Shown here one piece after another: positions 3,024-44,188 of a stretch of DNA of 44,188 nucleotides (positions are counted from its first letter, which is position 1; each line of letters begins with the position of its first letter). The notes under the pieces were generated by a model. It was not told the origin of the DNA. It saw nothing but the letters and a program-made list of their open reading frames with translations, and searched no databases. The stretch lies in the IMG/VR virus record IMGVR_UViG_3300045988_019982; one strand, given 5' to 3'. The position numbers were made by a program, and so were the translations under genes. The stretch is from a virus. Lineage: Duplodnaviria > Heunggongvirae > Uroviricota > Caudoviricetes.

Positions 3024-5195
3024 ATGAGTTACCTGTTCTTAGACTTTGAAACATTCTCCGAGGCCGATTTAAAGAAAGTTGGCTCCTACGCTTACGCCGA
3101 ACACCCAACCACCGAAGTGCTCATCTGTACCTATGCTTTTGACGACGAGCCTGTACAGGTATGGGATTGCACCGACGGCAGCGACATGCCGGGAGATTTG
3201 CACCGCGCGTTACGCCGTCTGGTTAAGCCAAACAGCCGCATCAAGATGGTGTGGCACAACGGCTCAATGTTCGATCGTCTTGTCATGAAGCACTGCTGGG
3301 GTTTTGATATTCCGGTAAGCAACACCATTGATACGATGATTTGGGCGTTTCGTCACGCGCTGCCGGGTTCACTTGATGCGTTGTGCGAAGTGCTGGGCGT
3401 ATCTGCGGACAACGCGAAAGACAAACGCGGCAAGGCTCTGATTCAGCGTTTTTCTAAACCGACGCCGAAGAACTACAAAATACGTCGCTACACCGCCGAA
3501 ACACACCCGGACGAGTGGGCGATATTCATCAAGTACGCCGTGAGCGACATCACCGCGATGCGTGAAGTCTTCCATAAGCTGCCGCGTTGGGGTAACTCCG
3601 AGTTCGAGGACCGGGTGCTTGAGCTGGACCAGTTAATCAATGACCGAGGGTTTAAGGTTGACGTAGCGCTGGCAGAAGCCGCAATTGAAGCCGTGGAGAA
3701 ACACAAAGCGCAGTTACAGGAAGAAGCCCAGCGCAAATACGGCGGCTCTCTTACTGGTAAAGACTTCCTTCCGATTCTGCGCGAACTTGCGCCCGCGCAC
3801 CGCATCCACAATGCGCAGAAGTCAACGCTTCATGACCTGCTGGCAGACGATGATTTACCGGACGATGCGCGTACTATTATCGAAATGCGGCTCGGGGCCG
3901 CGTCCACCGCATCAACGAAATATAACCCACTGCTGTTGGGCCGCTCTTCGGACGACCGACGCCGCGGTTGTATCCAGTACGGCGGGGCAAAGCGTACGTT
4001 ACGGTTTGCGGGTAAAGGCTTCCAGCCGCAGAACCTCGCACGCGGGTACTATCATGATGATGAACTGGATAAAGGTATTTCCGCGCTACTTAAAGGCCGT
4101 GCGCATCGCCGTTTTGATGTAGCCAAACTAACGGCATCGACGGTGCGTAGCTGCATCATACCGGAAGCCGGGCATAAGTTTGTCGTTGCCGATTACTCTA
4201 ACGTTGAAGGCCGTGGTTTGGCGTGGCTGGCTGGGGAAGACGATTTAATCGAAGTATTTGTAAACGGGGTTGATGTGTATAAGAAACTCGCATCAACGGT
4301 GTTCAACGTTGCCTATGAGGATGTAACAAAGGACCAAAGACAAATAGCCAAAGCAATGGTTCTGGGCCTCGGCTACGCGGGAGGTGTCGGTGCTTTCGTC
4401 ACGTTTGCTAAAAACTTAGGTCTTGATTTGAACGATATGGCCCGCACTTTAGACGGAACTTTCCCGGACCATATTTGGGCTGCTACCGCACGCGGTTACG
4501 AGTGGGCGCGTATTCAGGAAGCCAAGCGACCACCACGTCCTGGTGAAAAGGATGACAGGCCATCGTATATTCTTGATAAGAAAGTGTGGCGTACCTGCGA
4601 CGCTTTAAAACGCATGTACCGAGAAGCTAATCCTGCAATAGTCAAATTCTGGCGGGATATTGAAGACGCGGCCATGGCGGCTATCCGCAACCCAGGTAAA
4701 GAGTTCACCGCAGGGCCACGCGGCGTTAAGTTTTCGCGTAACGTAGAGACAGACAACAACGGCAACAAAGTCGCCGGTTGGTGGTTGCGCATGACGTTGC
4801 CGTCGGGCCGCGTCATGTCTTACCCGGGCGTCGGGTTGAGCGTGTCGAAAGAGACAGACGAAGACGGGAAGGTGTCTACTAACGTGCGCATCAAGTACCA
4901 GGGTGAAAATCAGCTAACCCGTCAGTGGGGGTTCCAGTACACCTACTCCGGTAAACTGGTGGAAAACTGCACTCAGGCGTTGTGCCGTGATTTGCTGGCC
5001 AACGCGCTGCTGAACGTTGAGGCAAACGGCTACCCGATTGTGCTTCACGTACACGATGAGATTATCTGCGAGACACCAGATTTACCGGAATACAATGTAG
5101 CAGAGCTTGAGCGGTTGATGTGCGAATTACCGGAATGGGCAGAAGGCTTCCCTCTTGTAGCGGAAGGTGCGGAGATGAAGCGTTATGCTAAGTAA
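3024..5195 (+). CDS. DNA polymerase, family A, with 3'-5' exonuclease domain
   Basis: 723 aa; Exo I LFLDFETFS; motif A DYSNVEGR; motif B RQIAKAMVLGLGYAGG; motif C HVHDE. Confidence 0.9.
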   Translation: MSYLFLDFETFSEADLKKVGSYAYAEHPTTEVLICTYAFDDEPVQVWDCTDGSDMPGDLHRALRRLVKPNSRIKMVWHNGSMFDRLVMKHCWGFDIPVSNTIDTMIWAFRHALPGSLDALCEVLGVSADNAKDKRGKALIQRFSKPTPKNYKIRRYTAETHPDEWAIFIKYAVSDITAMREVFHKLPRWGNSEFEDRVLELDQLINDRGFKVDVALAEAAIEAVEKHKAQLQEEAQRKYGGSLTGKDFLPILRELAPAHRIHNAQKSTLHDLLADDDLPDDARTIIEMRLGAASTASTKYNPLLLGRSSDDRRRGCIQYGGAKRTLRFAGKGFQPQNLARGYYHDDELDKGISALLKGRAHRRFDVAKLTASTVRSCIIPEAGHKFVVADYSNVEGRGLAWLAGEDDLIEVFVNGVDVYKKLASTVFNVAYEDVTKDQRQIAKAMVLGLGYAGGVGAFVTFAKNLGLDLNDMARTLDGTFPDHIWAATARGYEWARIQEAKRPPRPGEKDDRPSYILDKKVWRTCDALKRMYREANPAIVKFWRDIEDAAMAAIRNPGKEFTAGPRGVKFSRNVETDNNGNKVAGWWLRMTLPSGRVMSYPGVGLSVSKETDEDGKVSTNVRIKYQGENQLTRQWGFQYTYSGKLVENCTQALCRDLLANALLNVEANGYPIVLHVHDEIICETPDLPEYNVAELERLMCELPEWAEGFPLVAEGAEMKRYAK

Positions 5196-5316
5196 ACTGA
5201 TTATTGCGGTACTGGCGGGATTCGCCGCCGTTGTCTATTGTCACGAGGGTCAATACGGCATGATTGTCGCCGTACTGGGCATGTTCATCGCAATTTATCT
5301 GTGGGTGCTGGAATGA
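5185..5316 (+). CDS. small hydrophobic peptide (43 aa)
   Basis: Not in ORF track (<60 aa); ATG overlaps polymerase 3' end; MLSKLIIAVLAGFAAVVYCHEGQYGMIVAVLGMFIAIYLWVLE; stop overlaps next ATG. Confidence 0.35.
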   Translation: MLSKLIIAVLAGFAAVVYCHEGQYGMIVAVLGMFIAIYLWVLE

Positions 5317-5402
5317 AAATTTACTGGTTACACGAAGAAGACCGCCGAATCTGCCCGCGCTGTGGCATTGAGCATACAAAACGAGAGGGGTGCGTATTAT
5401 GA
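5313..5402 (+). CDS. 29-aa peptide with CPRCG motif
   Basis: ATGA-coupled between two hydrophobic peptide ORFs; MKIYWLHEEDRRICPRCGIEHTKREGCVL. Confidence 0.3.
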   Translation: MKIYWLHEEDRRICPRCGIEHTKREGCVL

Positions 5403-5550
5403 CAATGTTTGCATTTTGGACGATAGTAACCCTGCTCGCACTGTTACTCGGTGCAGGAATAGCCGCGATGTTCTGTTACGGTCTGTTCTTTAAGTTTGTC
5501 GGTATTGCGGTTCTCGGAGGGGCGTTTATAACCTGGACTCTGCGGTCATG
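5398..5550 (+). CDS. small hydrophobic peptide (50 aa)
   Basis: ATGA overlaps at both ends; MTMFAFWTIVTLLALLLGAGIAAMFCYGLFFKFVGIAVLGGAFITWTLRS. Confidence 0.35.
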
Positions 5551-5859
5551 ACTAAAGAGGGCCGCGTACAGAAATACGCAAAAGAGCGATTCGAGGCCAT
5601 TGGTGGCCTCATTCGTAAACTTTCCTACGAGGGGCGCTCCGGCGCTCCCGACCTGCTGGTAATTCTCCCCGGGGGCATCGTCTGGTTCGTCGAGGTGAAG
5701 AAAGACGAAAACACGAAGCCAGACCCGCACCAGCTACGTGAGCACGAGCGGATGCGCAAACGCGGTGCAAATGTTTTTGTCGTTGGGTCGTTTAAACAGG
5801 TTGACGACCTAATAGCGAACTATTATAGTTATCCGTACACCAACAATATAAGGAATTGA
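5548..5859 (+). CDS. VRR-NUC domain nuclease
   Basis: 103 aa; GAPDLLVILPGGIVWFVEVKK (D...E-x-K core) then QLREHERMRKRGANVFVV. Confidence 0.65.
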   Translation: MTKEGRVQKYAKERFEAIGGLIRKLSYEGRSGAPDLLVILPGGIVWFVEVKKDENTKPDPHQLREHERMRKRGANVFVVGSFKQVDDLIANYYSYPYTNNIRN

Positions 5860-5862
5860 GAA

Positions 5863-6054
5863 ATGAAATACGAATATGGCTGCAAACCAGCACGTGACAT
5901 CGTACCGGGCGACATGATTTTCAACGTTAAGACCCGCCAGCCTGTTGCCGTTGATACGGTGTTCGTAGAGTCTAACGGTAAACTGGTAATCGAAGATGTA
6001 ACCGGTAACGTTACGGCGTTCGGACGTAAAGAGTTGGTGCTGGTGGCCAAATGA
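5863..6054 (+). CDS. hypothetical protein (63 aa)
   Basis: ATG with GGAATTGAG upstream; stop overlaps MTase start. Confidence 0.5.
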   Translation: MKYEYGCKPARDIVPGDMIFNVKTRQPVAVDTVFVESNGKLVIEDVTGNVTAFGRKELVLVAK

Positions 6055-6995
6055 ACTATTACAACGAATGGGATAAAGGCGCAGCCGCGTGGCTGCGTGA
6101 ATTAATAAAACAGGGCCACATACCTTTTGGAGTTGTAGATGAAAGAAGCATTACCGAAGTTAAGCCAGAAGACCTTGACGGGTTCACCCAGTGTCATTTT
6201 TTCGCTGGCATCGGCGGCTGGCCTCTCGCGCTCAGACTTGCGGGAGTTTCGGAAGATACGCCTCTCTGGACGGGAAGCCCGCCTTGCCAACCGTTTAGCG
6301 CGGCAGGAAAACAACTCGGACAGTTCGACCCGAGACACCTCGCGCCAGTCTTCCTCGACCTCATCAGCGAGTGCCACCCTCCAGTCCTCTTTGGGGAACA
6401 GGTTGCGCCAGCAATTGCAAAATCGTGGATGTGCGATTTACAAACTCACCTGGAAGGAGAAGACTACGCCGTCGGGTTTGCCGTACTCCCAGCTTGTAGC
6501 GTCGGCGCTCCGCACAAAAGAGAACGACTCTTCTTTGGTGCGTACCAACTGGCCTGCACCGACAGCGAACGATTACAAAGGGAGCGGAGAGACTGTTATC
6601 CGCAAGGACGGGAAGGACAGAACATTCGACAGGCTGGACTACTCAACGGAACAGGGGCTAAAACTGACGAATTGGCCCACCCCTCGCAGTTCGGATGGGG
6701 AAAAGAACGTGAGAACACTAGAGGGGGCGCTATCGGAGATTCAGAGGAAGGGTGGGCCTCAAGACGTGGCACAAGCGGCGGCGATAACACAACTAATTCG
6801 CATCACGGCTTCTGGTCAGATGCTGACTGGCTCGGATGCCGGGATGGAAAGTTCCGGCCAGTTGAACCCGACACATTCCCGCTGGCTAATGGGATACCCG
6901 CCAGAGTGGGACGATTGCGCGGTTACGGCAATGCCATCGTCCCGCAAGTAGCCGCCGAATTTATAAAGGCGTTTATGGGGGCCGTAAATGAGTAA
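6051..6995 (+). CDS. DNA (cytosine-5)-methyltransferase, possibly frame-disrupted
   Basis: Motif I FFAGIGG, IV SPPCQPFSAAGK, VI FGEQV, VIII HKRERLFFG, X GYGNAIVPQVAAEFI in this frame; central third is low-complexity while frame +1 (6541-6951) reads like a real domain. Confidence 0.65.
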   Translation: MNYYNEWDKGAAAWLRELIKQGHIPFGVVDERSITEVKPEDLDGFTQCHFFAGIGGWPLALRLAGVSEDTPLWTGSPPCQPFSAAGKQLGQFDPRHLAPVFLDLISECHPPVLFGEQVAPAIAKSWMCDLQTHLEGEDYAVGFAVLPACSVGAPHKRERLFFGAYQLACTDSERLQRERRDCYPQGREGQNIRQAGLLNGTGAKTDELAHPSQFGWGKERENTRGGAIGDSEEGWASRRGTSGGDNTTNSHHGFWSDADWLGCRDGKFRPVEPDTFPLANGIPARVGRLRGYGNAIVPQVAAEFIKAFMGAVNE

Positions 6996-14527: not shown

Positions 14528-16837
14528 TTAATACCCCGGCTGACCGCGGGTAGCGCGGCGAGCTTTAGAAATCGGTGAGTTGTTATCCTGTAACTGCGAC
14601 GCTACTGTTTCACTGATTATAATACGTAAACGCCCTTCGTCATCACGTTCTGTTACGGCAGAGTCCACACGGCCGGTGGTATTGTTGACGATTGTCACGC
14701 TGTCGCCACCTGACGGGCTGCCGTTTTGGCCCATAATTTCTTTCATCTGCTGCGCGGTGCGCACACGCGATGCGCCAGCGGGCATGATAACCTCCGGCTT
14801 ACCGCGTTCAGCGATGGTAGACATCTGGCCTGCCGATAGCTGCCCACCCTGTTCACGCGCCGAGCGGATTTTGGCGATATTAGCCAGCCCCGCGGCAACG
14901 GCAGTAGCCGCGGCAACCGGTGCCAGGAATGGGCCGACGACCGGTATCGCCGCAGTAGACTTATATGCTTCGATAGCTGACGTGTATGTTGCGATAGTGG
15001 CCTGGGCAATAGCAAACGCTTTATAAGCGGCGGACGCCTCGCCAAATGCTGTTTTAGCATTAGATGCCATGTCACCAAAGGCGTCCCCGGTGGCTTTGGC
15101 ACGCTTCATTGAATACTGCTCATCCAGGGCTAGGAGCGCCATCTGGTACTGCTCAGCGTTAATTATGCCGTCGGCCATGTATTTTGAGATGATATTCGCT
15201 TTTTGAGACTGTTGTATTTCCAACAACTCAAGCTCAGCGGCATTCTGGCCCATAATCTGGGCCATGAAGTCGTCTCCTTTCTGCTGCTTTTCCTGCTGCT
15301 CTTTTCTTTTCTTATCCAGTTCTTCCTGTCTGGCCTGCTCGGCTGTGAGCATAATTTGAGTTTTGGCGTTTTCGTACTGCTGCTGGCTTATTGTTCCGGC
15401 GCGGTTGAACTCTTCAAGTTTCGCCAGTTTCTGCTCTTCTGCCGCTGTGATACGTGAAATTTCGTCTCCGGTTGTTCGGTCGACAGTAGCGAGGAAATCT
15501 TCCGCCGCTTTTTTCTGTCGTTCAGCTGCGGTTTCTTCGCGTTTGGCTTGTGCCGCCAGACGTTTCTCGTTCGATTTAGCCTCTCGGTCTGCCTTCGCTT
15601 TTTCGGTCGCGTCGATGCGAGCGATGTCTTGCCGTGCTTCCGTGTCACGGGCCGCGTTATACGCGGCTATCTGTTCTTTGGTGACCGCTTCACGTTTAGC
15701 GAACGCCTGTTTATCAAGTTCAGCTTGCGCCCGGATGCGCTCACGGTCGCTTAATATGGCGATTTGCTGATTCTTGACGATAGCTTCGTTCTGTTCCTGG
15801 AATCTCTGCGTTGTTGAGTTGACGTTACGACCAAGATTCTTTTGGGCCTCCGCCGCCGCGTTTGCCGACTTCTCCGCGTTCTCCAGTGCCGTGGCATTCT
15901 TGTTGGCGTTGTCCGTCAGGCGGATAAGTTCCGGGTTCAACTGTTTTGTGTTACCGAGCCAGTCGGTAAACACATCGGCGATGCGACGGGCATTCTCAGC
16001 GGTTGGTTCTTTGTTAAACGCACTCTGTGCCGCTATCATCTCCAGCGCCTGGTCACGGTTAACCCCGAACTTACTGCTAAGCTCCGCGATATTCTGCGCC
16101 AGCATGTTGACGCCTACGATATTACCCTCGTAAGTGCCTCCGAGTTTTTCTAACGTGTCGCCTACATCAGCACCCTTAGATACCAGCGCGTCGTACTGGC
16201 TAATAGCTGATGCAGTGGAGGCTTTCCATGTTTCCCACGATTCGGCATCTTCACGAACAGCTTTAGCGGTTTGCTGCGCGATAAGGTCTGCGTTAGCCTT
16301 AGCCAGAGCAAGCTGAGTCTCCGCCGCTTCTCTGCTGATTTGGGTTAGCTGAATAAGGCCGTCTGTCAGTTCTAGGGAGCCAGATGCCGTTTGCTGGAAG
16401 GTGTCTTTTAACTGTTTCTGGGCTGCTTCCAGGTCTTTTGAACTCCCCTCAGCCTCCGTTAGCGATTTGTACAGGACACCGCCAACAGCCGACGCTAGCG
16501 CGATTACAGCCCCAAGCACCGCACCACCAGGGCCGAAGGCACCTGCAAGCTGTGAACCTTGTTGCCCGATTGCTACGAATGCAGACGTGCCGGACTGCAA
16601 TTGGACAACCATGTCCTGTACCTGGAAGCCAACCTGCCCGGCGGCGTTACGGAACTTAGCGAAACCGTCAGAGGCCGCTTTAGAGGTAGCTGTGTTAACT
16701 TTATTAACATCTGGGGTCAGCTTGTTTACTGCGGTATCCGCACGGTCTGCAGACGACGCCATAGCGTCAAGCTGTTTGGCGGCTACGTCAGCACCTTCTG
16801 TTTTTACTCTGGCAATTAGGGAAGCCGTATCAGCCAT
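14528..16837 (-). CDS. tail tape measure protein
   Basis: ~769 aa, Ala/Gln/Glu-rich coiled-coil composition; Gly/Ala-rich hydrophobic C-terminal segment; ATG at 16837 preferred over TTG 16852. Confidence 0.85.
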   Translation of the reverse strand: MADTASLIARVKTEGADVAAKQLDAMASSADRADTAVNKLTPDVNKVNTATSKAASDGFAKFRNAAGQVGFQVQDMVVQLQSGTSAFVAIGQQGSQLAGAFGPGGAVLGAVIALASAVGGVLYKSLTEAEGSSKDLEAAQKQLKDTFQQTASGSLELTDGLIQLTQISREAAETQLALAKANADLIAQQTAKAVREDAESWETWKASTASAISQYDALVSKGADVGDTLEKLGGTYEGNIVGVNMLAQNIAELSSKFGVNRDQALEMIAAQSAFNKEPTAENARRIADVFTDWLGNTKQLNPELIRLTDNANKNATALENAEKSANAAAEAQKNLGRNVNSTTQRFQEQNEAIVKNQQIAILSDRERIRAQAELDKQAFAKREAVTKEQIAAYNAARDTEARQDIARIDATEKAKADREAKSNEKRLAAQAKREETAAERQKKAAEDFLATVDRTTGDEISRITAAEEQKLAKLEEFNRAGTISQQQYENAKTQIMLTAEQARQEELDKKRKEQQEKQQKGDDFMAQIMGQNAAELELLEIQQSQKANIISKYMADGIINAEQYQMALLALDEQYSMKRAKATGDAFGDMASNAKTAFGEASAAYKAFAIAQATIATYTSAIEAYKSTAAIPVVGPFLAPVAAATAVAAGLANIAKIRSAREQGGQLSAGQMSTIAERGKPEVIMPAGASRVRTAQQMKEIMGQNGSPSGGDSVTIVNNTTGRVDSAVTERDDEGRLRIIISETVASQLQDNNSPISKARRATRGQPGY

Positions 16838-17203
16838 CTTCTCTGCCCTCAAATATTCCGTCTAAGCCCATGATAACCTCGGCTTCGAACAAACTTATGC
16901 CGTAACCGGCGACATCACGAAACGCTACCAAATCTTGCCATTTGAGCGCATCGCGCGGGATTATAACGATAGTATCATCTGTTTCGCGCTGTAGGAATTT
17001 AATGGCACGGTATTTCTCGAACACGTCGATAAGAGAAACGGGGCATTCCGGCCCCGTCGTTTCTTTCATCTGCGGTTCTTTAATCACGCCCATTGCAATC
17101 AAAGCCGCCTGGTGGCCCGCCGCGATGTCGTCGAATTGCTTACGTTTGTGACGGTCAACAAAACACCATTGCGCAAATTCATACAGCGCTTTTACTTTTC
17201 CGA
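16830..17203 (-). CDS. -1 frame extension ORF of tail assembly chaperone (gpT-like part of G-T fusion)
   Basis: Frame is open from inside the 3' end of the 17192-17608 ORF through to 16830; -1 relative to it; slippery cGGAAAAGuaa at the upstream stop. Confidence 0.5.
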
Positions 17204-17608
17204 GAGTTTCTCGCGGCTATCGGTGTGGTGCTTAACTACGGCTTCTGCCAACCCACTATACTGGTCAAACAGGTTAGCCAGCGCCTCTTTGCTGAACGGT
17301 TCGTCGAATGACCAACCGGTGACGATTTCCACGGCGAGCTGCTTGTTCAGGTCCATCACCCGCCAGCCCTTCTCATCGTTATAGCGCGCCCAGTTATTCA
17401 GCGCCTCGCACTCTTTATCTAATGGCGCAAGTTCTTCCGTAAGGCGTCGAATTGCCGTTGTGTAGGCGCGGCCCGCACGAACACCAGCGTCACAATCGGG
17501 GCCGATAACCTGCAACCATTCACCGGAATCTTTACCACTCGGCAGAAGGATAGGCATTTTAGTGCCTACAGCATGGCGGTCAGCAAAATAAAAATCAGAA
17601 AGTTTCAT
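17192..17608 (-). CDS. tail assembly chaperone (gpG-like)
   Basis: 138 aa immediately upstream of the frameshift ORF and tape measure gene. Confidence 0.6.
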   Translation of the reverse strand: MKLSDFYFADRHAVGTKMPILLPSGKDSGEWLQVIGPDCDAGVRAGRAYTTAIRRLTEELAPLDKECEALNNWARYNDEKGWRVMDLNKQLAVEIVTGWSFDEPFSKEALANLFDQYSGLAEAVVKHHTDSREKLSEK

Positions 17609-17715
17609 TCTTTAATCCTTTGGTTAAGAGGTTACCGGTTAAGATTAACGCGCCAGACGGGAACCACCCGCTTTTCGTGTGCGACACTAGGCGCAAACTT
17701 ATTCTAGCACACTAC

Positions 17716-17745
17716 TTGCACACCCCAATATAATAGGGTACTATT
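17716..17745 (+). promoter_or_regulatory. promoter copy A (TTGCAC-N17-TACTAT) with AATAG-ggta-CTATT inverted repeat
   Basis: ttgcacaccccaatataatagggtactattcacc; 19/19 identical core (ataatagggtactattca) with copy B. Confidence 0.6.
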
Positions 17746-17769
17746 CACCTGTAACTTACTGAGGAAATA

Positions 17770-18099
17770 ATGATGCGTAAATTAGTATTAGCTCTGGGGT
17801 TTATGTCTTTTGCTGCTTTTGGGTCCCCGTGTGAACAGGTATTTAGTGAATCGGTTCTTATGACTTCTGGTGTGCTTGAGAAAGCCGACCCTACTATTGT
17901 AAAGGCATTTAAGGACTCTACCGTTCGCGAGTGTGAGGCCGCCGTAGAGGTTGGTAAATCTGGCCTACCTCCGCAAGCCGTAACATACTCGGTAATACGT
18001 TCGGTAGAGAAAAACGGAGACGCGTTTTACAGCCTACTGACCGCCACTCGTCTGCAAATGGTAATGACTGGGTGGGCGATAGGCGCGGAAAGTAAATAG
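17770..18099 (+). CDS. secreted/periplasmic small protein (signal peptide)
   Basis: MMRKLVLALGFMSFAAFGSPCEQ...; GAGGAAATA SD; first gene of the opposite-strand cassette. Confidence 0.55.
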   Translation: MMRKLVLALGFMSFAAFGSPCEQVFSESVLMTSGVLEKADPTIVKAFKDSTVRECEAAVEVGKSGLPPQAVTYSVIRSVEKNGDAFYSLLTATRLQMVMTGWAIGAESK

Positions 18100-18164
18100 T
18101 CGCCTTTATTTAAAGGAATGCACTGTGGTTAAATAGGACAAATCCTAAACACGAGGAAGTAAGC

Positions 18165-19295
18165 ATGGCCCGGAAGAAAATAACCGACGAACAGTTACAG
18201 GAAGAATTGAACGCCGGAATGAAGAATATCGATATAGCCCGTAAATACGGCATCTCAGACCGCGTTATTCGTATCCGTAAAGCGAAGCTGGCTAAGAAAG
18301 GCGTGGGCCACGGGCGCGACGTTAGCCACCTTGTCCCGGACGGCTACAAGATTAAAGGGACGTCGTCTCTGGTAGACGAGTTCGGCAACACTAAGTTGCA
18401 ATGGGTTAAGACAGACACCGACGCTGAACGTCAGGTCGAGTTGATGAAAGCCGTGATTGAAGGCATGAAGTCAGAGATTACGCCAGTTGCGCCGGCTAAA
18501 GCGACTCGAGCCAAACGCGACGACAAGCTACTCAATCTTTACACGGTATCTGATTTCCATCTCGGTATGCTTGCCTGGGCCGACGAGAGCGGCGACGACT
18601 GGGATATAAAGATTGCGGAAGACCTGTTCTCTCGTTGGTTCGACGCGGCGTTTCAGAAAGCACCGGATGCAGGAACAGGAGTTATTAACCTGCTGGGTGA
18701 TTTCGCGCACTTCGATAGCCTGGATGCCGTTACCCCTGAGTCGCGCCATGTGTTAGACGCAGACACTCGCTACCAGAAACTTGTCCGCTACATGATTCGT
18801 ATGGTCCGCCGTGTTGTTGATATGGCGCTGGTTAAACATAAAACCGTCCGCTTGCTTATCGTGCAAGGGAACCACGACCCTGTAGGGTCTGTATGGCTGG
18901 CGGAAATGTTCACGACTTTATACTCAAACGACAGCCGAGTGATTGTTGACACGTCGCCGGATGTTTACAAGATGGTGCAGCACGGCAAAACGACGCTGTT
19001 CTTCCATCACGGGCATAAAGCACGCTTCGACGCTATCGAACCGGTTATGATTGCCAAGTTCCGCAAAGCGTTCGGGGAGAGTGTCTATAGCTACGCCCAC
19101 GTAGGCCACCTGCACCACCAGAAGATTGTAGAAAGCCGTAACATGATTGTTGAGCAACACCGCACCTTAGCGGCTAAAGACGCATACGCCTCCCGCGGCG
19201 GATGGATGTCAGGCCGCAGTGCAAATGTGATTACTTATAGCGCCGAATATGGCGAGGTCGCACGTTTAACCATTTCTCCGGAGATGCTGGGATGA
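18165..19295 (+). CDS. calcineurin-like metallophosphoesterase with basic, possibly DNA-binding, N-terminal segment
   Basis: N-term IDIARKYGISDRVIRIRKAKL; phosphoesterase motifs LGDFAHFD, QGNHD, FHHGH, VGHLHH. Confidence 0.65.
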   Translation: MARKKITDEQLQEELNAGMKNIDIARKYGISDRVIRIRKAKLAKKGVGHGRDVSHLVPDGYKIKGTSSLVDEFGNTKLQWVKTDTDAERQVELMKAVIEGMKSEITPVAPAKATRAKRDDKLLNLYTVSDFHLGMLAWADESGDDWDIKIAEDLFSRWFDAAFQKAPDAGTGVINLLGDFAHFDSLDAVTPESRHVLDADTRYQKLVRYMIRMVRRVVDMALVKHKTVRLLIVQGNHDPVGSVWLAEMFTTLYSNDSRVIVDTSPDVYKMVQHGKTTLFFHHGHKARFDAIEPVMIAKFRKAFGESVYSYAHVGHLHHQKIVESRNMIVEQHRTLAAKDAYASRGGWMSGRSANVITYSAEYGEVARLTISPEMLG

Positions 19296-19777
19296 AAGAT
19301 ATTGTAATTTTCGATTTAGATGGGACATTGGCGGATGGTACACATCGTTTACACCTGCTGCCGAAAGATAACTACAACGAAACATGGGCGTGGAAGCCAT
19401 TTAACATGGCGTGCAAAGATGATGAGCCAATTAGAGATAATATCGAACTATGTAACGCCCTTAATCGGCGATACGCCGTTATTATTTTAACCGGTCGCAG
19501 TGATGACGCAGAAAAAGAAACCAGAATGTGGTTGCAGCGCCACCGCGTCGAATTTTATCAGCTAATCATGCGCAGCAAACACGACAACAGAAAAGACATC
19601 GTAATTAAAGAAGAGGTGTTGCGCGCTATCGGGCTGGAAAGAATCTTGTGTGCGTTCGATGATTCTCCGGCGGTAATTAAGCACTTCCGTGCCCTCGGCC
19701 TAACAACACACGCAGTCACCGAATATGACTGCAACGGGACCTCTACACACGTAAAACCACACGGGAGCGATAAATAA
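19292..19777 (+). CDS. HAD-superfamily phosphatase
   Basis: Motif I IVIFDLDGTL; motif II IILTGR; later FDDS; ATGA overlap with upstream gene. Confidence 0.65.
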   Translation: MKDIVIFDLDGTLADGTHRLHLLPKDNYNETWAWKPFNMACKDDEPIRDNIELCNALNRRYAVIILTGRSDDAEKETRMWLQRHRVEFYQLIMRSKHDNRKDIVIKEEVLRAIGLERILCAFDDSPAVIKHFRALGLTTHAVTEYDCNGTSTHVKPHGSDK

Positions 19778-20331
19778 TGGCTAAGGTAATTATTCTTAAT
19801 GGCCCGGCGGGTTGTGGGAAAGACACACTCGCTATGGCGCTGGTAGAAATGGGCTTTGCGAAGGGAACCGCCAGTTTCAAGAATCCAATGTTCAATATTG
19901 CTTTGGCAGCGTTGGGCCCGGATGCTTACCGCGAATTTCTCGACGGCTACGACGACCGGGCGCGGAAAGAAAGGCCAGAGGGTTTCCTTAATGGGCTGTC
20001 TCGCCGCCAGTTCATGATTGCCATTTCTGAGCAATTCATTAAACCAGTATTCGGCGATGATTATTTCGGTAAGTATCTTGCAGGAAACTTGCCCGACGGC
20101 GACGAAGTTTTTGTAGTGTCCGACGGTGGGTTCGCCAGCGAAGTAGCCCCTATCGTCGCCGCAGGTCATGATGTAAGAATCGTTCGCTTGCACCGAGACG
20201 GCTATACGTTTGACGGGGATAGCCGCGGTTACCTGTACGATGTTGGTGGTGATGAAGATTATGATGTATACATCATACCCGGTGACGTTAAATCTAACGT
20301 TATAGACATTGCTCTAAAATTAGGCTTGTAA
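19777..20331 (+). CDS. P-loop nucleotide/polynucleotide kinase
   Basis: Walker A ILNGPAGCGKDT near N-terminus; 184 aa; start overlaps HAD stop. Confidence 0.65.
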   Translation: MAKVIILNGPAGCGKDTLAMALVEMGFAKGTASFKNPMFNIALAALGPDAYREFLDGYDDRARKERPEGFLNGLSRRQFMIAISEQFIKPVFGDDYFGKYLAGNLPDGDEVFVVSDGGFASEVAPIVAAGHDVRIVRLHRDGYTFDGDSRGYLYDVGGDEDYDVYIIPGDVKSNVIDIALKLGL

Positions 20332-20336
20332 GAAAA

Positions 20337-20361
20337 AGGCCCCGGAAGGGGCCTTAGTTTT
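20337..20361. terminator. bidirectional rho-independent terminator
   Basis: aaaaAGGCCCCggaaGGGGCCTtagtttt; hairpin near-identical to 8551 and 27688. Confidence 0.7.
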
Positions 20362-21526
20362 ATGCGTAGGTGATACGTTGAATTACGATGGACGACTGGT
20401 ACTGATTGCCTGTGGACTGCCCTTCTATACTTTGGGTAATTGATTCCGGGCCAGATATTTCTGGTGTGACCGCCGTGAGTTCTGCACGTTTCAAACTGAA
20501 AGACATAGCCCCGTTTACCCCGGCCAGAATAGAGTTAATCTCTACCTGCTGTTCGTTGATAAACTTCTGAATCATCGCCATGTCGTACAGCTTACCGGAG
20601 ATAGAGAAGGTGTTAGCTGCGCGGCCGCGTTCCACGAACGCAACGCTACTGTTGCCGAGTTCGAACTGTGCGGACGCGCTGTTATCGTTGGTGATGGTCA
20701 GGCTATCACAACGCAACGGCGTAGAACCGTCGAACACAGAAACGTCAACCGAGGAGAACGGCTCATCACCAAACGTAACAGAGGAGAAATCAGAACCAGA
20801 CGGCGGCTCAGTGAGAATCTCCTGGGTCCGCCCGATAAACGGGAAGCTGCCGGTTACCATCGCATTAACAGCCTGCTCGACAGTGAAACCAGAAACTTCC
20901 ACACCTTTGGTCAGCGTGTACGCGTCAGTCCCGCCACATTGGCCTTTGTACCAGGTGAGAATAGAGAACGTCTTACACTGGCTACCGGTTTCCAGTTTGT
21001 CGCCGGTCTTAGCCGCGGTAGTGGCTGTCTCTGTGGTCAGAGTATGTTGGATACCAGCCCCGGTTACTACCAGTGCCGTTACCGCAGTGACGATAAACGG
21101 TTTAGCGTTATCACCCGTTAAGTCAGTAAAAGCAATCAGGTCGCCTACTTCCACACCGTCAGTAATAAAGCTGCCATCAGCACGGGTGAACGTCTTGCCC
21201 GCCGGTGCGACGGTAATCGACAGACTGGACAGGGAGACACCGGATTGCCACGTAGAGCCTAAAGCCCCGGCTAACCAGTCATCCTGGCTTTTCGAACTAA
21301 GCTCGATAGCATATTCTCCGCTAACCTGCTTGTTACCGGTGCGGATGGATGTAGTTTCGCGGCTGCCGTCCAGTTCGTTGGAGGTCAGCGTGTCGCGGGT
21401 AATAGCAGGAACACCGCCTGTGTTGCGCAACGGCGACCATACCGGGTTAGTTGGTGTTACGCCCGGGGTGACTTCCGCCACATAGAATTGCGCGGTAGTC
21501 GCGCCCTTAAAAGGAGTTGTAGCCAT
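20360..21526 (-). CDS. major tail protein
   Basis: ~388 aa Thr/Ser/Gly-rich, upstream of tail completion genes; ATG at 21526 with AAGAGG SD (track start 21532 is GTG). Confidence 0.6.
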   Translation of the reverse strand: MATTPFKGATTAQFYVAEVTPGVTPTNPVWSPLRNTGGVPAITRDTLTSNELDGSRETTSIRTGNKQVSGEYAIELSSKSQDDWLAGALGSTWQSGVSLSSLSITVAPAGKTFTRADGSFITDGVEVGDLIAFTDLTGDNAKPFIVTAVTALVVTGAGIQHTLTTETATTAAKTGDKLETGSQCKTFSILTWYKGQCGGTDAYTLTKGVEVSGFTVEQAVNAMVTGSFPFIGRTQEILTEPPSGSDFSSVTFGDEPFSSVDVSVFDGSTPLRCDSLTITNDNSASAQFELGNSSVAFVERGRAANTFSISGKLYDMAMIQKFINEQQVEINSILAGVNGAMSFSLKRAELTAVTPEISGPESITQSIEGQSTGNQYQSSIVIQRITYA

Positions 21527-21528
21527 AT

Positions 21529-21942
21529 TCACAGCCTCTTGGTGAATGCAATAAAGTTAATTGACAATGGTCGTTTGGCCCATCCGTTTTCTACAATCAG
21601 CGGCCCCAGGCTAACCGATTGAACCTCGGCGCAGATGTCGTTACGTGAAAATGACTTACCTGCTTTAAACGCCGTGTTGAGTAAGTCTGCCATTTTATTG
21701 ATTGGCGCGCTACCTTTCACCGATGCGTAGTTAATGTCGACCTGATAAACACCTGAGCGTTGCTCGGTGAAGAATAGGTCAGCCTGTTCCGTATCCGCAA
21801 GTAGCATGTAACTTGCCAGATACGGTGTATCGGTAGAAGTCGGCGCGTCAATGTTTTCAAGCGCAACCTTGATGCCGTTGGCGGCTCCGAAGGCTACCAG
21901 CGGCACATCAAACGCTTTGGTTAAGTCCTCAAAGTAGCCCAT
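21529..21942 (-). CDS. tail completion / head-tail joining protein (positional)
   Basis: 137 aa in compact - strand structural operon. Confidence 0.45.
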   Translation of the reverse strand: MGYFEDLTKAFDVPLVAFGAANGIKVALENIDAPTSTDTPYLASYMLLADTEQADLFFTEQRSGVYQVDINYASVKGSAPINKMADLLNTAFKAGKSFSRNDICAEVQSVSLGPLIVENGWAKRPLSINFIAFTKRL

Positions 21943-27405: not shown

Positions 27406-27435
27406 TTGCAGACACCAACATAATAGGGTACTATT
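27406..27435 (+). promoter_or_regulatory. promoter copy B (TTGCAG-N17-TACTAT) with AATAG-ggta-CTATT repeat
   Basis: ttgcagacaccaacataatagggtactattca; core identical to copy A. Confidence 0.6.
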
Positions 27436-27469
27436 CATTACATCGAAACGAGAGATGAGGAATTTAAAG

Positions 27470-27682
27470 ATGAAAGAGTTAATTATCGCGGTATTGACGA
27501 CATTGGCAGTTTCACTGGTAATTGCCGCGGGTGTACGTAGCTTAGATAAACATGGGTGCGAGAACTACGGAGATATCACAGGCAGAGAGGTAATGTATAG
27601 TTACGCAACTTGTTATGTAAAAACTGATAGAGGTTTTATCCCTCGTGAAGAACTTAATTTTAGAGCAGCGACACATAAATAA
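27470..27682 (+). CDS. small membrane-anchored protein, single-gene insert in head module
   Basis: MKELIIAVLTTLAVSLVIAAGV (signal/TM) then Cys-containing domain; own promoter and terminator; opposite strand to flanking head genes. Confidence 0.55.
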   Translation: MKELIIAVLTTLAVSLVIAAGVRSLDKHGCENYGDITGREVMYSYATCYVKTDRGFIPREELNFRAATHK

Positions 27683-27687
27683 AACTA

Positions 27688-27705
27688 AGGCCCCGTTTGG
27701 GGCCT
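27688..27705. terminator. bidirectional terminator hairpin
   Basis: AAGGCCCCgtttGGGGCCTT; same hairpin family as 8551 and 20337. Confidence 0.65.
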
Positions 27706-27709
27706 TCTA

Positions 27710-29283: not shown

Positions 29284-30765
29284 TTACTGCTGAGCGGCGT
29301 CTTGTTGCTGCGCCGACTGCGGAATCTCTCCTGCCACCTGAGCAACAGCACCTAACGGTAGGGGTGCGTCCTCAATCGCAGTCTTAATCTCCTCGTCAGT
29401 CCAGTCAGTAACCCCCGCCTTACGCAATGCCGCGTAGTAAGCAGTAGCGGGTAGCAGGCCGGCGTTAATATCCGCCATCCACTGCGCTCGTTCGGGCGCG
29501 GTCATCGGTTGCAGGAAGAACTCCATATTCAGCTTGAACTCAATCTCTGTGCCTTCACGCAGCCCCAGCATCGCCGCTACCCAGCGCAATGCATCTGTAT
29601 AAGCCATGCTTACATTACGTGCGATTGTCGCCATAACAGACGTGTCGGCACCGCGTTGCAGGCGTGCCGATTCAGCGGTGATTTGCTGGGTAGGGGTGAT
29701 AAGCTGTGCGCCAATCTGGATGGCCTGATTCTCTTTATCCAGCATGTTCTGCTTGGCGAGGTTGTTCTCCCCCGCCTGAACCAAGAACGCATTGCCACCG
29801 TAGCCGATGTTGTGACCTGAACGCGACCCCATGCGCACGCCGTGGGGGTTGGCTTCTTTCCACTGTTCCATGCTCATGTTCTCGCCGGGAGCAATGAACA
29901 GAGTGGGCTGGCCTACAACGAAACTGGACTCCTCATTGTCTGCGCTGTTGCGGAAATGTCCGATATTAAGCTCAGCCAACGGCAGCAAAGGCGCATCGTC
30001 AATCGTAGCGTCGTTGTTGCTCGCCCCGATAAACGTGAACGGGATTTTGCCGCGCAACTGTTCGCCGAGTTCCGGGAATATCTCGATTACTTCATCCTGT
30101 GCGCCACCTTCGGCGTCGAAGCGGTAAATACGCTGGCGGTAGCGGCCATCAATCAAATCGAGAACGCGGTATTGTTCACCGAACTTTGTTTCGAACTCTG
30201 CGCCAGGTTCTGAGTATTCCCACACCTCACGCAGCACGACCATAGTCACACGGTTCACTGAACCTACGCGTGTCAGTCGCCAGTTGATGATGTTCTCTGC
30301 GGTATAGAATGCGATGACCGGGTTTAATAACCCTGCGTTCTGTTCGGCTGCCGTTGCAGCAGCAGTCTCCGGGGCGTCAACCAGCAACCCGCCACGGCCC
30401 ACCGAGTCAATCTCCATCAGCGTGTCCTGCGCGTGCTGCCACAGCCCGACACCGGAACCGTCTGCATTGCGTAACAGGTACTCCAGTTCAGGCGGGATAA
30501 TCTGCTCGGGGTCTTTGCGCATGACACTGCCGACCATCCCGGCCAGAGTACGTTTAGTGAAGTTGTAGCAAATAGCGCCGTTCTCATATTCTTCCTGGCG
30601 CCGGGCTGCGTAGGTCTCGTCCGGCTCGTTCTTACCAACGTTGCGCAGATAGCGAATAAGGTCGCCTTCCAGTGCGTGGCGTACTTTCTGCCATTTATTG
30701 AAGTGATGCAGCCATTCCCGGTGTTTTGTCTTAACACCCTGATTCTGACCGTTCATAGTTAACAT
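29284..30765 (-). CDS. portal protein
   Basis: 493 aa immediately downstream of terminase large subunit; ATG with AAGAGGA SD. Confidence 0.8.
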   Translation of the reverse strand: MLTMNGQNQGVKTKHREWLHHFNKWQKVRHALEGDLIRYLRNVGKNEPDETYAARRQEEYENGAICYNFTKRTLAGMVGSVMRKDPEQIIPPELEYLLRNADGSGVGLWQHAQDTLMEIDSVGRGGLLVDAPETAAATAAEQNAGLLNPVIAFYTAENIINWRLTRVGSVNRVTMVVLREVWEYSEPGAEFETKFGEQYRVLDLIDGRYRQRIYRFDAEGGAQDEVIEIFPELGEQLRGKIPFTFIGASNNDATIDDAPLLPLAELNIGHFRNSADNEESSFVVGQPTLFIAPGENMSMEQWKEANPHGVRMGSRSGHNIGYGGNAFLVQAGENNLAKQNMLDKENQAIQIGAQLITPTQQITAESARLQRGADTSVMATIARNVSMAYTDALRWVAAMLGLREGTEIEFKLNMEFFLQPMTAPERAQWMADINAGLLPATAYYAALRKAGVTDWTDEEIKTAIEDAPLPLGAVAQVAGEIPQSAQQQDAAQQ

Positions 30766-38012: not shown

Positions 38013-38040
38013 CTTCTGTCTCTCCTCTCGTTTGTGTAAA

Positions 38041-44047: not shown

Positions 44048-44188
44048 AATTATGGCTATTTTAGCTAAGAAAAGTGGGCTTATGATTTCAGGGCGAGTCA
44101 TAGAAGAAACAGATAACTTTGTATGCTTCCACGCGGTAGATAATAAACGCCCTACGTATGTACAAAAGTCGGATAAAACACAAAAAGT
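44048..44188. repeat. Terminal direct repeat, copy 2 (identical to 1-141)
   Basis: Exact 141-bp match to the window start, including the first 137 bp of the 5-208 ORF. Confidence 0.9.

Follow-up and report, generated by a model that had tools for sequence, protein, structure and literature searches.

The window analysed here, a 44,188-nucleotide stretch of DNA from a tailed virus (IMG/VR record IMGVR_UViG_3300045988_019982), is a complete Kagunavirus genome, that of a K1H-like Escherichia coli phage, and carries within its minus-strand tail operon a cassette of four plus-strand genes (17770-20331). After a first gene, orfA, come three that encode a metallophosphoesterase (MPE), a HAD phosphatase and a P-loop kinase. 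We read the cassette, tentatively and with a probability of roughly 45%, as an early-expressed module for DNA turnover and deoxynucleoside triphosphate (dNTP) supply, which in Guernseyvirinae is lodged inside the late tail operon. The reading draws on the families to which the kinase and the HAD phosphatase belong, the clade in which its structure model places the MPE, intact active sites, the coupling of the three genes, an early-type promoter and the finding that unrelated phages carry the trio in blocks of DNA-metabolism genes.

In the scheme that we favour, host RNA polymerase would read the cassette from a standard early promoter and stop at a hairpin, with expression independent of the tail genes. 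The MPE, a Mre11/DP1-like enzyme tethered through a helix-turn-helix (HTH), would first cut or resect DNA, most plausibly that of the host, and release 5'-deoxynucleoside monophosphates (dNMPs); the Pnkp-type HAD phosphatase would strip 3'-phosphates that block exonucleolytic digestion or priming, acting on DNA ends or on 3'-dNMPs; and the gp1/Dnk-like kinase would turn dNMPs into the diphosphates (dNDPs), from which the nucleoside diphosphate kinase of the host would then make dNTPs for phage replication. No nucleotide-metabolism enzyme besides the cassette kinase was found among the open reading frames (ORFs) of the window, so that a dNMP kinase would duplicate nothing else encoded there. 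Phage T7 recycles host DNA by means of the gp3 endonuclease, the gp6 exonuclease and the gp1.7 nucleotide kinase, which feed host dNMPs into phage DNA synthesis, and the strategy of T5 likewise parallels a route from nuclease to dNMP to dNDP. The T7 set would share the logic proposed for the cassette, that of early nucleases and a nucleotide kinase, and in the T7-like phage PP99 the trio adjoins exonuclease and endonuclease genes; the T7 protein families are, however, unrelated to those of the cassette, which has a phosphatase in addition, and the likeness is a functional analogy only.

The kinase and the HAD phosphatase

The kinase (19777-20331, plus strand; 184 residues) is a compact member of the T4 gp1/T5 Dnk family, not a Pnk kinase, and is predicted to phosphorylate dNMPs. 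It matched phrog_139 ('deoxynucleoside monophosphate kinase') with an E-value of 6.9e-46; T4 gp1, the query sequence of which was checked and is identical to that of PDB 1DEK, matched the same family at 1.8e-65. T4 Pnkp matched phrog_505 and phrog_2071, neither of which was matched by the window kinase. Pfam and NCBIfam recognized only the P-loop (none of the four cassette proteins reached any NCBIfam family cut-off), a sequence search of the PDB returned P-loop matches only, and the motif itself, GPAGCGKDT, is generic to P-loop kinases; the first-pass annotation had reported both this motif and the DLDGTL of the HAD phosphatase, and both are present. Sequence searches of the PDB were insufficient to place either the kinase or the MPE, for both of which structure prediction was needed, and the placement of the kinase rests on the PHROG comparison together with fold searches.

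An AlphaFold model of the kinase, built with 60 homologues, had a predicted local distance difference test score (pLDDT) of 94. When this model was compared with the full PDB by Foldseek, its best template-modelling (TM) score, 0.67, was to 1dek (T4 gp1), and the top 50 matches held no polynucleotide kinase. The alignment with gp1 spans 169 of the 184 kinase residues, and the gp1 fold, including the nucleoside monophosphate-binding and lid regions, is present. Added to the family alignment, gp1 proved collinear with the kinase, sharing GKDT and the pairs K15/K14, R61/R68, R77/R132, D116/D175, E122/E181 and R140/R197 (kinase/gp1); an equivalent of gp1 D15 is also present. The P-loop GKDT and the motif SF-x-x-P-x-[FY] are common to the window kinase, T4 gp1 and T5 Dnk. 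In hhalign, T5 Dnk aligned with the kinase family profile at 95% probability across the P-loop and SFxxPxY, with GSGKDT…SFxxPxY as the common motif; the comparison of the family with the single gp1 sequence (74% probability over 72 columns) and that with T4 Pnkp (25 columns, of the P-loop only) were weakly informative. The kinase differs from gp1 in that it lacks an insertion of about 36 residues, is 57 residues shorter and is only about 20% identical.

In T4 Pnk, the aspartate that serves as general base (D35) and an arginine (R38) start the helix that follows strand β2. The equivalent segment of the window kinase reads SF-K35-x-P-M-F; K35, at the position of the catalytic aspartate of such hydroxyl kinases, is invariant among the 60 homologues, and no acidic residue near it is conserved in that set. 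The candidate assignment as a T4 Pnkp-type polynucleotide 5'-kinase was rejected on the membership in phrog_139, the 1DEK fold and the lysine in place of aspartate; the same results contradict the first-pass annotation, which had cast the kinase as the Pnk partner of the HAD phosphatase.

The HAD phosphatase (19292-19777, plus strand; 161 residues) is, by profile match and residue conservation, a genuine member of the T4 Pnkp-type DxDxT phosphatase family in which every catalytic residue is kept. It matched the Pfam family HAD_PNKP (PF25109) at 71.3 bits (cut-off 27.6; E-value 1.2e-19) over profile positions 2-140 of 143, and its best PDB matches were the phosphatase domains of T4 Pnkp and of Capnocytophaga Pnkp1 (4xrp), the latter from a bacterial RNA-repair complex. 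In a pairwise alignment, D8, D10, R19, T67, R69, D102, K106, D123 and D124 correspond to D165, D167, R176, S211, R213, D254, K258, D277 and D278 of T4 Pnkp, residues whose roles in the T4 phosphatase have been described (PMC3592404). The likeness to the T4 Pnkp phosphatase that had been drawn from the DLDGTL motif is thus upheld. Unlike T4 Pnkp (PseT), in which a kinase domain is fused, the window protein consists of the HAD domain only, with no kinase domain in its 161 residues; it is about 26% identical to the T4 enzyme and falls in phrog_415, the stand-alone form, not in the full-length phrog_505. T4 Pnkp carries a Pnk-type kinase, whereas the window phosphatase is paired with a gp1-type kinase in a genome that lacks an RNA ligase partner. 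No characterized member of the stand-alone family was found in the literature searched. The best homologue of the cassette kinase is a dNMP kinase, an outcome that the first-pass annotation had itself listed as counting against end healing; nucleotide salvage, its main alternative, lies closer to the evidence, although the HAD phosphatase was not recognisable as a 5'-nucleotidase.

The family of the HAD phosphatase also bears on a somewhat unlikely alternative, in which the trio processes or repairs DNA ends. The HAD phosphatase would remove 3'-phosphates, the MPE would trim ends, and host LigA, or a phage ligase of the kind found in PP99-like loci, would seal them; the kinase would phosphorylate 5'-OH DNA ends despite its gp1-like fold, or would merely supply dNTPs for gap filling. 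The substrates would be phage DNA in which host nucleases have made nicks or breaks, or intermediates of replication or recombination. Such a role fits a phosphatase whose family membership marks it as a true Pnkp-type 3'-phosphatase and which keeps all of its catalytic residues, and an HTH-bearing MPE that resembles the end-processing nucleases Mre11, SbcD and DP1; it also fits the DNA ligase gene that directly follows the trio in PP99-like loci and the Drulisvirus HAD gene that adjoins those for endonuclease VII and a 5'-3' exonuclease. The kinase, however, is without Pnk-type features, and the window genome offers neither a Rad50/SbcC partner nor a ligase (neither a DNA ligase nor an RNA ligase was found among its ORFs). 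Kagunaviruses were, moreover, highly sensitive to restriction-modification in the BASEL phenotyping (PMC11990801), which does not suggest that they withstand DNA cleavage unusually well.

The HTH-fused metallophosphoesterase

The MPE (18165-19295, plus strand; 376 residues) comprises an HTH (residues 1-45), a β-hairpin/helix linker (46-118) and a binuclear catalytic domain (119-376). The HTH is of the sigma-70 region 4/GerE type and is recognisable in many family members; the first-pass annotation had the metallophosphoesterase fold right and described this N-terminal segment only as basic. The catalytic motifs are D130xH132, G178D179, G235N236H237D238, H282 and G314H315xH317. All six were conserved in 56 diverse homologues, five of them invariantly and H315 in at least 90%; the invariant residues are D130, H132, D179, N236, H237, H282 and H317. 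Motif II reads LGDFAHFD, against a family consensus of LGDFLHxD. We take GDFxH to be the Mre11-like form of motif II, and GDxxDRG to be the mark of the λ-phosphatase/PPP clade to which Clostridium thermocellum Pnkp belongs; GDxxDRG is absent from motif II of the MPE, in a family that carries GDFxH instead.

Pfam matches of the MPE fell below threshold, a PDB sequence search with the single sequence gave no match, and a search with the family profile gave matches to SbcD, Mre11 and other metallophosphoesterases that were marginal only. The structure model (pLDDT 92) had its best fold matches among nucleases, namely PolD DP1, Mre11 and SbcD, at sequence identities of 12-18%. Taken from the model, these matches place the MPE in the nuclease clade of metallophosphoesterases and predict nuclease activity. 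From Mre11, SbcD and PolD DP1, including the phage proteins T4 gp47 and T5 D12, it differs in having the N-terminal HTH and β-hairpin linker in place of the Mre11 capping-domain architecture. Mre11 and SbcD further work with a Rad50/SbcC-type ATPase, whereas no such partner, and no PolD DP2, was found for the MPE in the window ORFs or in annotated relatives. The protein belongs to phrog_704 ('DNA repair exonuclease'), and the HTH-MPE family numbers 4,549 clusters at 50% identity, of which no characterized member was found in the searched literature.

The assignment of the MPE as a bacterial Pnkp (λ-phosphatase-type) phosphoesterase, as the first-pass annotation had it, was ruled out by the GDFxH motif and by the grouping of its fold with DP1, Mre11 and SbcD. 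That assignment had been one of two analogies behind the proposal that the cassette heals nucleic-acid ends, for example those of cut tRNA. In the form weighed here, three separate ORFs would together make up a tRNA end-healing system and restore 3'-OH/5'-P ends after cleavage by PrrC/RloC-type anticodon nucleases or similar defences. The Clostridium thermocellum Pnkp-Hen1 system resembles the cassette in that a kinase and a metallophosphoesterase, both with intact active-site motifs, are encoded together; in that system the phosphoesterase lies between kinase and ligase modules and has Hen1 as partner, an arrangement that does not hold for the MPE. The co-transcription and coupling of the kinase, phosphatase and phosphoesterase genes would suit such a system, as would the closeness of the HAD phosphatase to the phosphatase domains of Pnkp1 and T4 Pnkp, the latter of which heals RNA 2',3'-cyclic phosphate ends (PMC3592404). 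Nevertheless, we consider tRNA repair most improbable, because neither the Pnk-kinase nor the Clostridium Pnkp analogy survived a direct test and a sealing enzyme is lacking: the kinase is of the gp1/Dnk type, the MPE lies in the nuclease clade, and the window genome encodes neither the RNA ligase that T4 needs for sealing nor any tRNA gene. The kinase and the HAD phosphatase are each solitary in many phages, which also speaks against a tRNA-healing unit.

A further argument comes from the Krischvirus Ec_Makalu_001, which, besides RNA ligase A and a complete Pnkp, encodes a stand-alone HAD phosphatase (positions 3998-4474 of locus L087), 38% identical to that of the window, whose gene overlaps the nrdB stop codon; two distinct Pnkp-type phosphatases are therefore carried in one genome. 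The position of this HAD gene beside nrdAB, despite a complete Pnkp, ties the HAD clade to nucleotide metabolism and indicates that it is no substitute for Pnkp there.

A related proposal would make of the trio a three-protein end-processing machine, in which the gp1-fold kinase would act as a 5'-kinase beside a stand-alone 3'-phosphatase and an HTH-tethered Mre11-like nuclease that trims ends; this we regard as very unlikely. At similarly long odds, the machine would be a portable counter-defence for phage DNA or RNA cut to 3'-P/5'-OH ends, a split analogue of Pnkp built on a different kinase lineage. If the proposal is true, such split end healing would be of a new kind.

Expression signals and occurrence

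The cassette lies between tail genes of the opposite strand, as had been described in the first-pass annotation: the ORFs occupy 17770-20331, and Pfam agrees on the flanks, with two minus-strand tail assembly chaperone ORFs on one side (16830-17102, Phage_TAC_18, and 17192-17608, Phage_TAC_4) and the tail tube gene on the other (20360-21532, minus strand, Phage_tube_2). The MPE and HAD genes overlap by ATGA and the HAD and kinase genes by TAATG, and on these overlaps the three are taken to be translationally coupled. Compared with phage K1H, synonymous and non-synonymous codon differences numbered 95 and 20 in the MPE, 37 and 9 in the HAD phosphatase and 34 and 16 in the kinase. On this codon comparison, and on the 205 phage records that the region matches, the cassette ORFs are genuine genes and not chance ORFs, and the three enzymes appear to be under purifying selection because synonymous changes far exceed non-synonymous ones.

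Upstream of orfA stands a predicted early-type sigma-70 promoter (17716-17747, plus strand; TTGCAC-17 nt-TACTAT), a member of repeat family D9/D4 in which the near-palindrome AATAGGGTACTATT is embedded. Five copies of this element occur in the genome, at 17716 and 27406 on the plus strand and at 38035, 39633 and 43279 on the minus strand; the copy at 27406-27437 is 91% identical to that of the cassette. Across the alignment of all five, the near-palindromic core AATAGG.TACTATTCA is invariant. The minus-strand copies sit among small ORFs at 36-44 kb, in the orientation opposite to that of the plus-strand replication genes. From its sequence, the TTGCAC-17-TACTAT element is probably the early promoter type of the phage, and in its five copies it may serve early genes as promoter and operator at once. 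The sequence AACGAGAGG usually lies about 20 nt beyond the core of the element.

At the other end of the cassette, where the kinase and tail tube genes converge, is a predicted bidirectional intrinsic terminator (20336-20355), the hairpin AAGGCCCC-GGAA-GGGGCCTT with an A-run on one flank and a T-run on the other, which the terminator scan scored on both strands. The repeat family and this two-strand score bear out the earlier statement that a promoter copy and a bidirectional terminator bound the cassette, an architecture, own promoter and own terminator, that is moron-like. The terminator stands immediately 3' of the tail tube gene on the minus strand; the genes for the chaperone, the tape measure and the distal tail would consequently need antisense read-through of the 2.6-kb cassette or a promoter of their own. 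With its flanks (20331-20364) the hairpin is 82% identical to the segment 8547-8580 (AGAAAAAGGCCCC…GGGGCCTTAGTTTTATG; repeat D8), and this likeness suggests that a terminator module is reused at the ends of plus-strand early units. A weak minus-strand promoter-like site, GTTACA-17-TATATT, was also seen at 17755-17727.

Each of the three families is widespread, with 1,533 matching phage records for the kinase, 1,827 for the HAD phosphatase and 2,037 for the MPE. The order MPE-HAD-kinase recurs in the Autographiviridae phage PP99, at about 52% amino acid identity, where the trio lies between endonuclease VII and DNA ligase genes inside a DNA-metabolism block, and in the Webervirus SlimeyKevin, where it closes the replication block. 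The arrangement was noted in Drexlerviridae by a 2026 paper, in which a role in nucleotide supply was guessed (PMC13164509). In 37 of 84 kinase loci, the HAD gene lies upstream of the kinase gene on the same strand, mostly directly abutting it and in a few cases, such as T1, with one gene between. The Drulisvirus HAD gene occurs alone, next to the endonuclease VII and 5'-3' exonuclease genes mentioned above, and kinase-only environmental loci have genes for RuvC and an RNaseH-like 5'-3' exonuclease as neighbours. About 30 kinase-only environmental contigs (L045-L084) carry a RuvC-like gene upstream and an RNaseH-like gene downstream, and genes for a group-1 glycosyltransferase and for a DUF6433 protein follow the kinase gene, about 1.4 kb further downstream; these loci could be a DNA-modification context.

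Several points weigh against a DNA-turnover and dNTP-supply module. All three genes stood together in only 24 of the 84 kinase loci, which is also the number with an MPE; T1 has a HAD gene, a homing endonuclease gene and a kinase gene with no adjacent MPE, and Jerseyviruses, f18SE among them (positions 3501-5643 of locus L086), have the MPE gene at the same site within the tail operon, likewise on the opposite strand, and no HAD or kinase gene with it. The trio is thus not obligately linked and may represent two or three independent functions. The HAD phosphatase is the weakest step of the salvage scheme, its closest characterized relatives being enzymes that act on polynucleotide ends. In the kinase, the arginine of the gp1 DTR motif (R177) is replaced by Gly118 (DGGF), and acceptor specificity may differ from that of gp1. 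The identity of the MPE to nucleases is only 12-18%, and the metallophosphoesterase fold is also that of small-molecule phosphodiesterases such as LpxH, YfcE and Rv0805. A literature search for experimental work on the trio, or on the cassette genes of Kagunaviruses or Jerseyviruses, gave only genome descriptions and one speculative 2026 paper, and host DNA degradation by Kagunaviruses was undocumented in the literature, where degradation of host DNA by T1 was also searched for.

The variability of the slot admits another explanation, that three unrelated accessory genes share a permissive site, or that one or more of them acts in counter-defence on small molecules, the MPE, for instance, by degrading nucleotides that are cyclic or serve as signals, or the HAD phosphatase and the kinase as a pair by modifying a signal or toxin derived from a nucleotide. 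The moron-like architecture would agree with this, as would the exchange of orfA for a 'superinfection immunity' gene in a relative and the content of the f18SE slot, in which the HTH-MPE gene is followed by those for a small hypothetical protein and an Ant-like anti-repressor. We nonetheless judge it unlikely: the MPE-HAD-kinase order and its stop/start overlaps are conserved in three phage families, which argues for a functional unit, no PADLOC defence model gave a match, and the MPE, with its putative DNA-binding HTH, would be expected to act on nucleic acid.

First slot, annotation and genome

The first gene of the cassette, orfA (17770-18099, plus strand; 109 residues), has the signal-peptide-like N-terminus MMRKLVLALGFMSFAAFG that had been noticed at first pass and two cysteines in all, and is predicted to encode a secreted (periplasmic) protein. 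It belongs to phrog_14165 (unknown function), and its homologues, 99 records, are confined to Guernseyvirinae. A lipoprotein or a Cor-like exclusion protein was considered and rejected, since the residues before Cys21 (FGSP) form no lipobox. Many of the top-matching Kagunavirus records cover 86% of the region as two pieces, and in one relative that was examined a 63-residue 'superinfection immunity' gene (phrog_1039; positions 30377-30568 of locus L085) replaces orfA. The first slot is polymorphic among Kagunaviruses, holding either the 109-residue secreted protein or the 63-residue 'superinfection immunity' protein, and we propose that orfA is an unrelated, exchangeable passenger in it.

The cassette has already been annotated in more than 200 phage records, inconsistently and often wrongly. 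In GenBank, the HAD-only protein is named 'polynucleotide kinase' or '3'-phosphatase, 5'-polynucleotide kinase'; the kinase appears as an ATPase, the RFC large subunit, Era GTPase or phosphomevalonate kinase; and the MPE is a 'DNA polymerase II small subunit' or a 'serine/threonine phosphatase'. Nothing in the cassette is categorically new: the enzyme families are known, the genes were annotated earlier and their recurrence has been remarked in print. Correct labels, namely gp1-type dNMP kinase, stand-alone Pnkp-type phosphatase and HTH-fused nuclease-clade MPE, would stop an 'RNA repair' inference from spreading through annotation, and biochemistry of the trio would show what a widespread early module of phages does and clarify how small siphophages and podophages feed replication.

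The region 17600-20400 of the window matches 205 phage records. The top matches, about 90% identical across the whole of it, are the Escherichia phages AMO_3701M, M01, CR01 and K1H, the last of which is classified in the genus Kagunavirus of the Guernseyvirinae. A second opposite-strand mini-cassette (27406-27706) lies within the minus-strand lysis and head genes; it begins with the promoter copy at 27406-27437, contains a plus-strand ORF of 75 residues (27455-27682; phrog_26710, unknown function) with an N-terminal transmembrane helix and two cysteines, and closes with a GC hairpin terminator that ends near 27706.

The early region of the genome encodes a PD-(D/E)XK nuclease, a single-stranded DNA-binding protein, a family A polymerase, a C5 methyltransferase, a SNF2 helicase and a primase-helicase. 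The ORF with the C-5 cytosine DNA methyltransferase domain (6051-6995, plus strand; Pfam DNA_methylase, E-value 3.7e-16) lies in the replication block; in the annotated relative vB_VIPECOTH07, no C-5 methyltransferase gene is listed at the corresponding place. Identical direct repeats of 141 bp occupy positions 1-141 and 44048-44188 of the window, and are most likely the overlap from circular assembly of a complete genome, not a biological terminal repeat.

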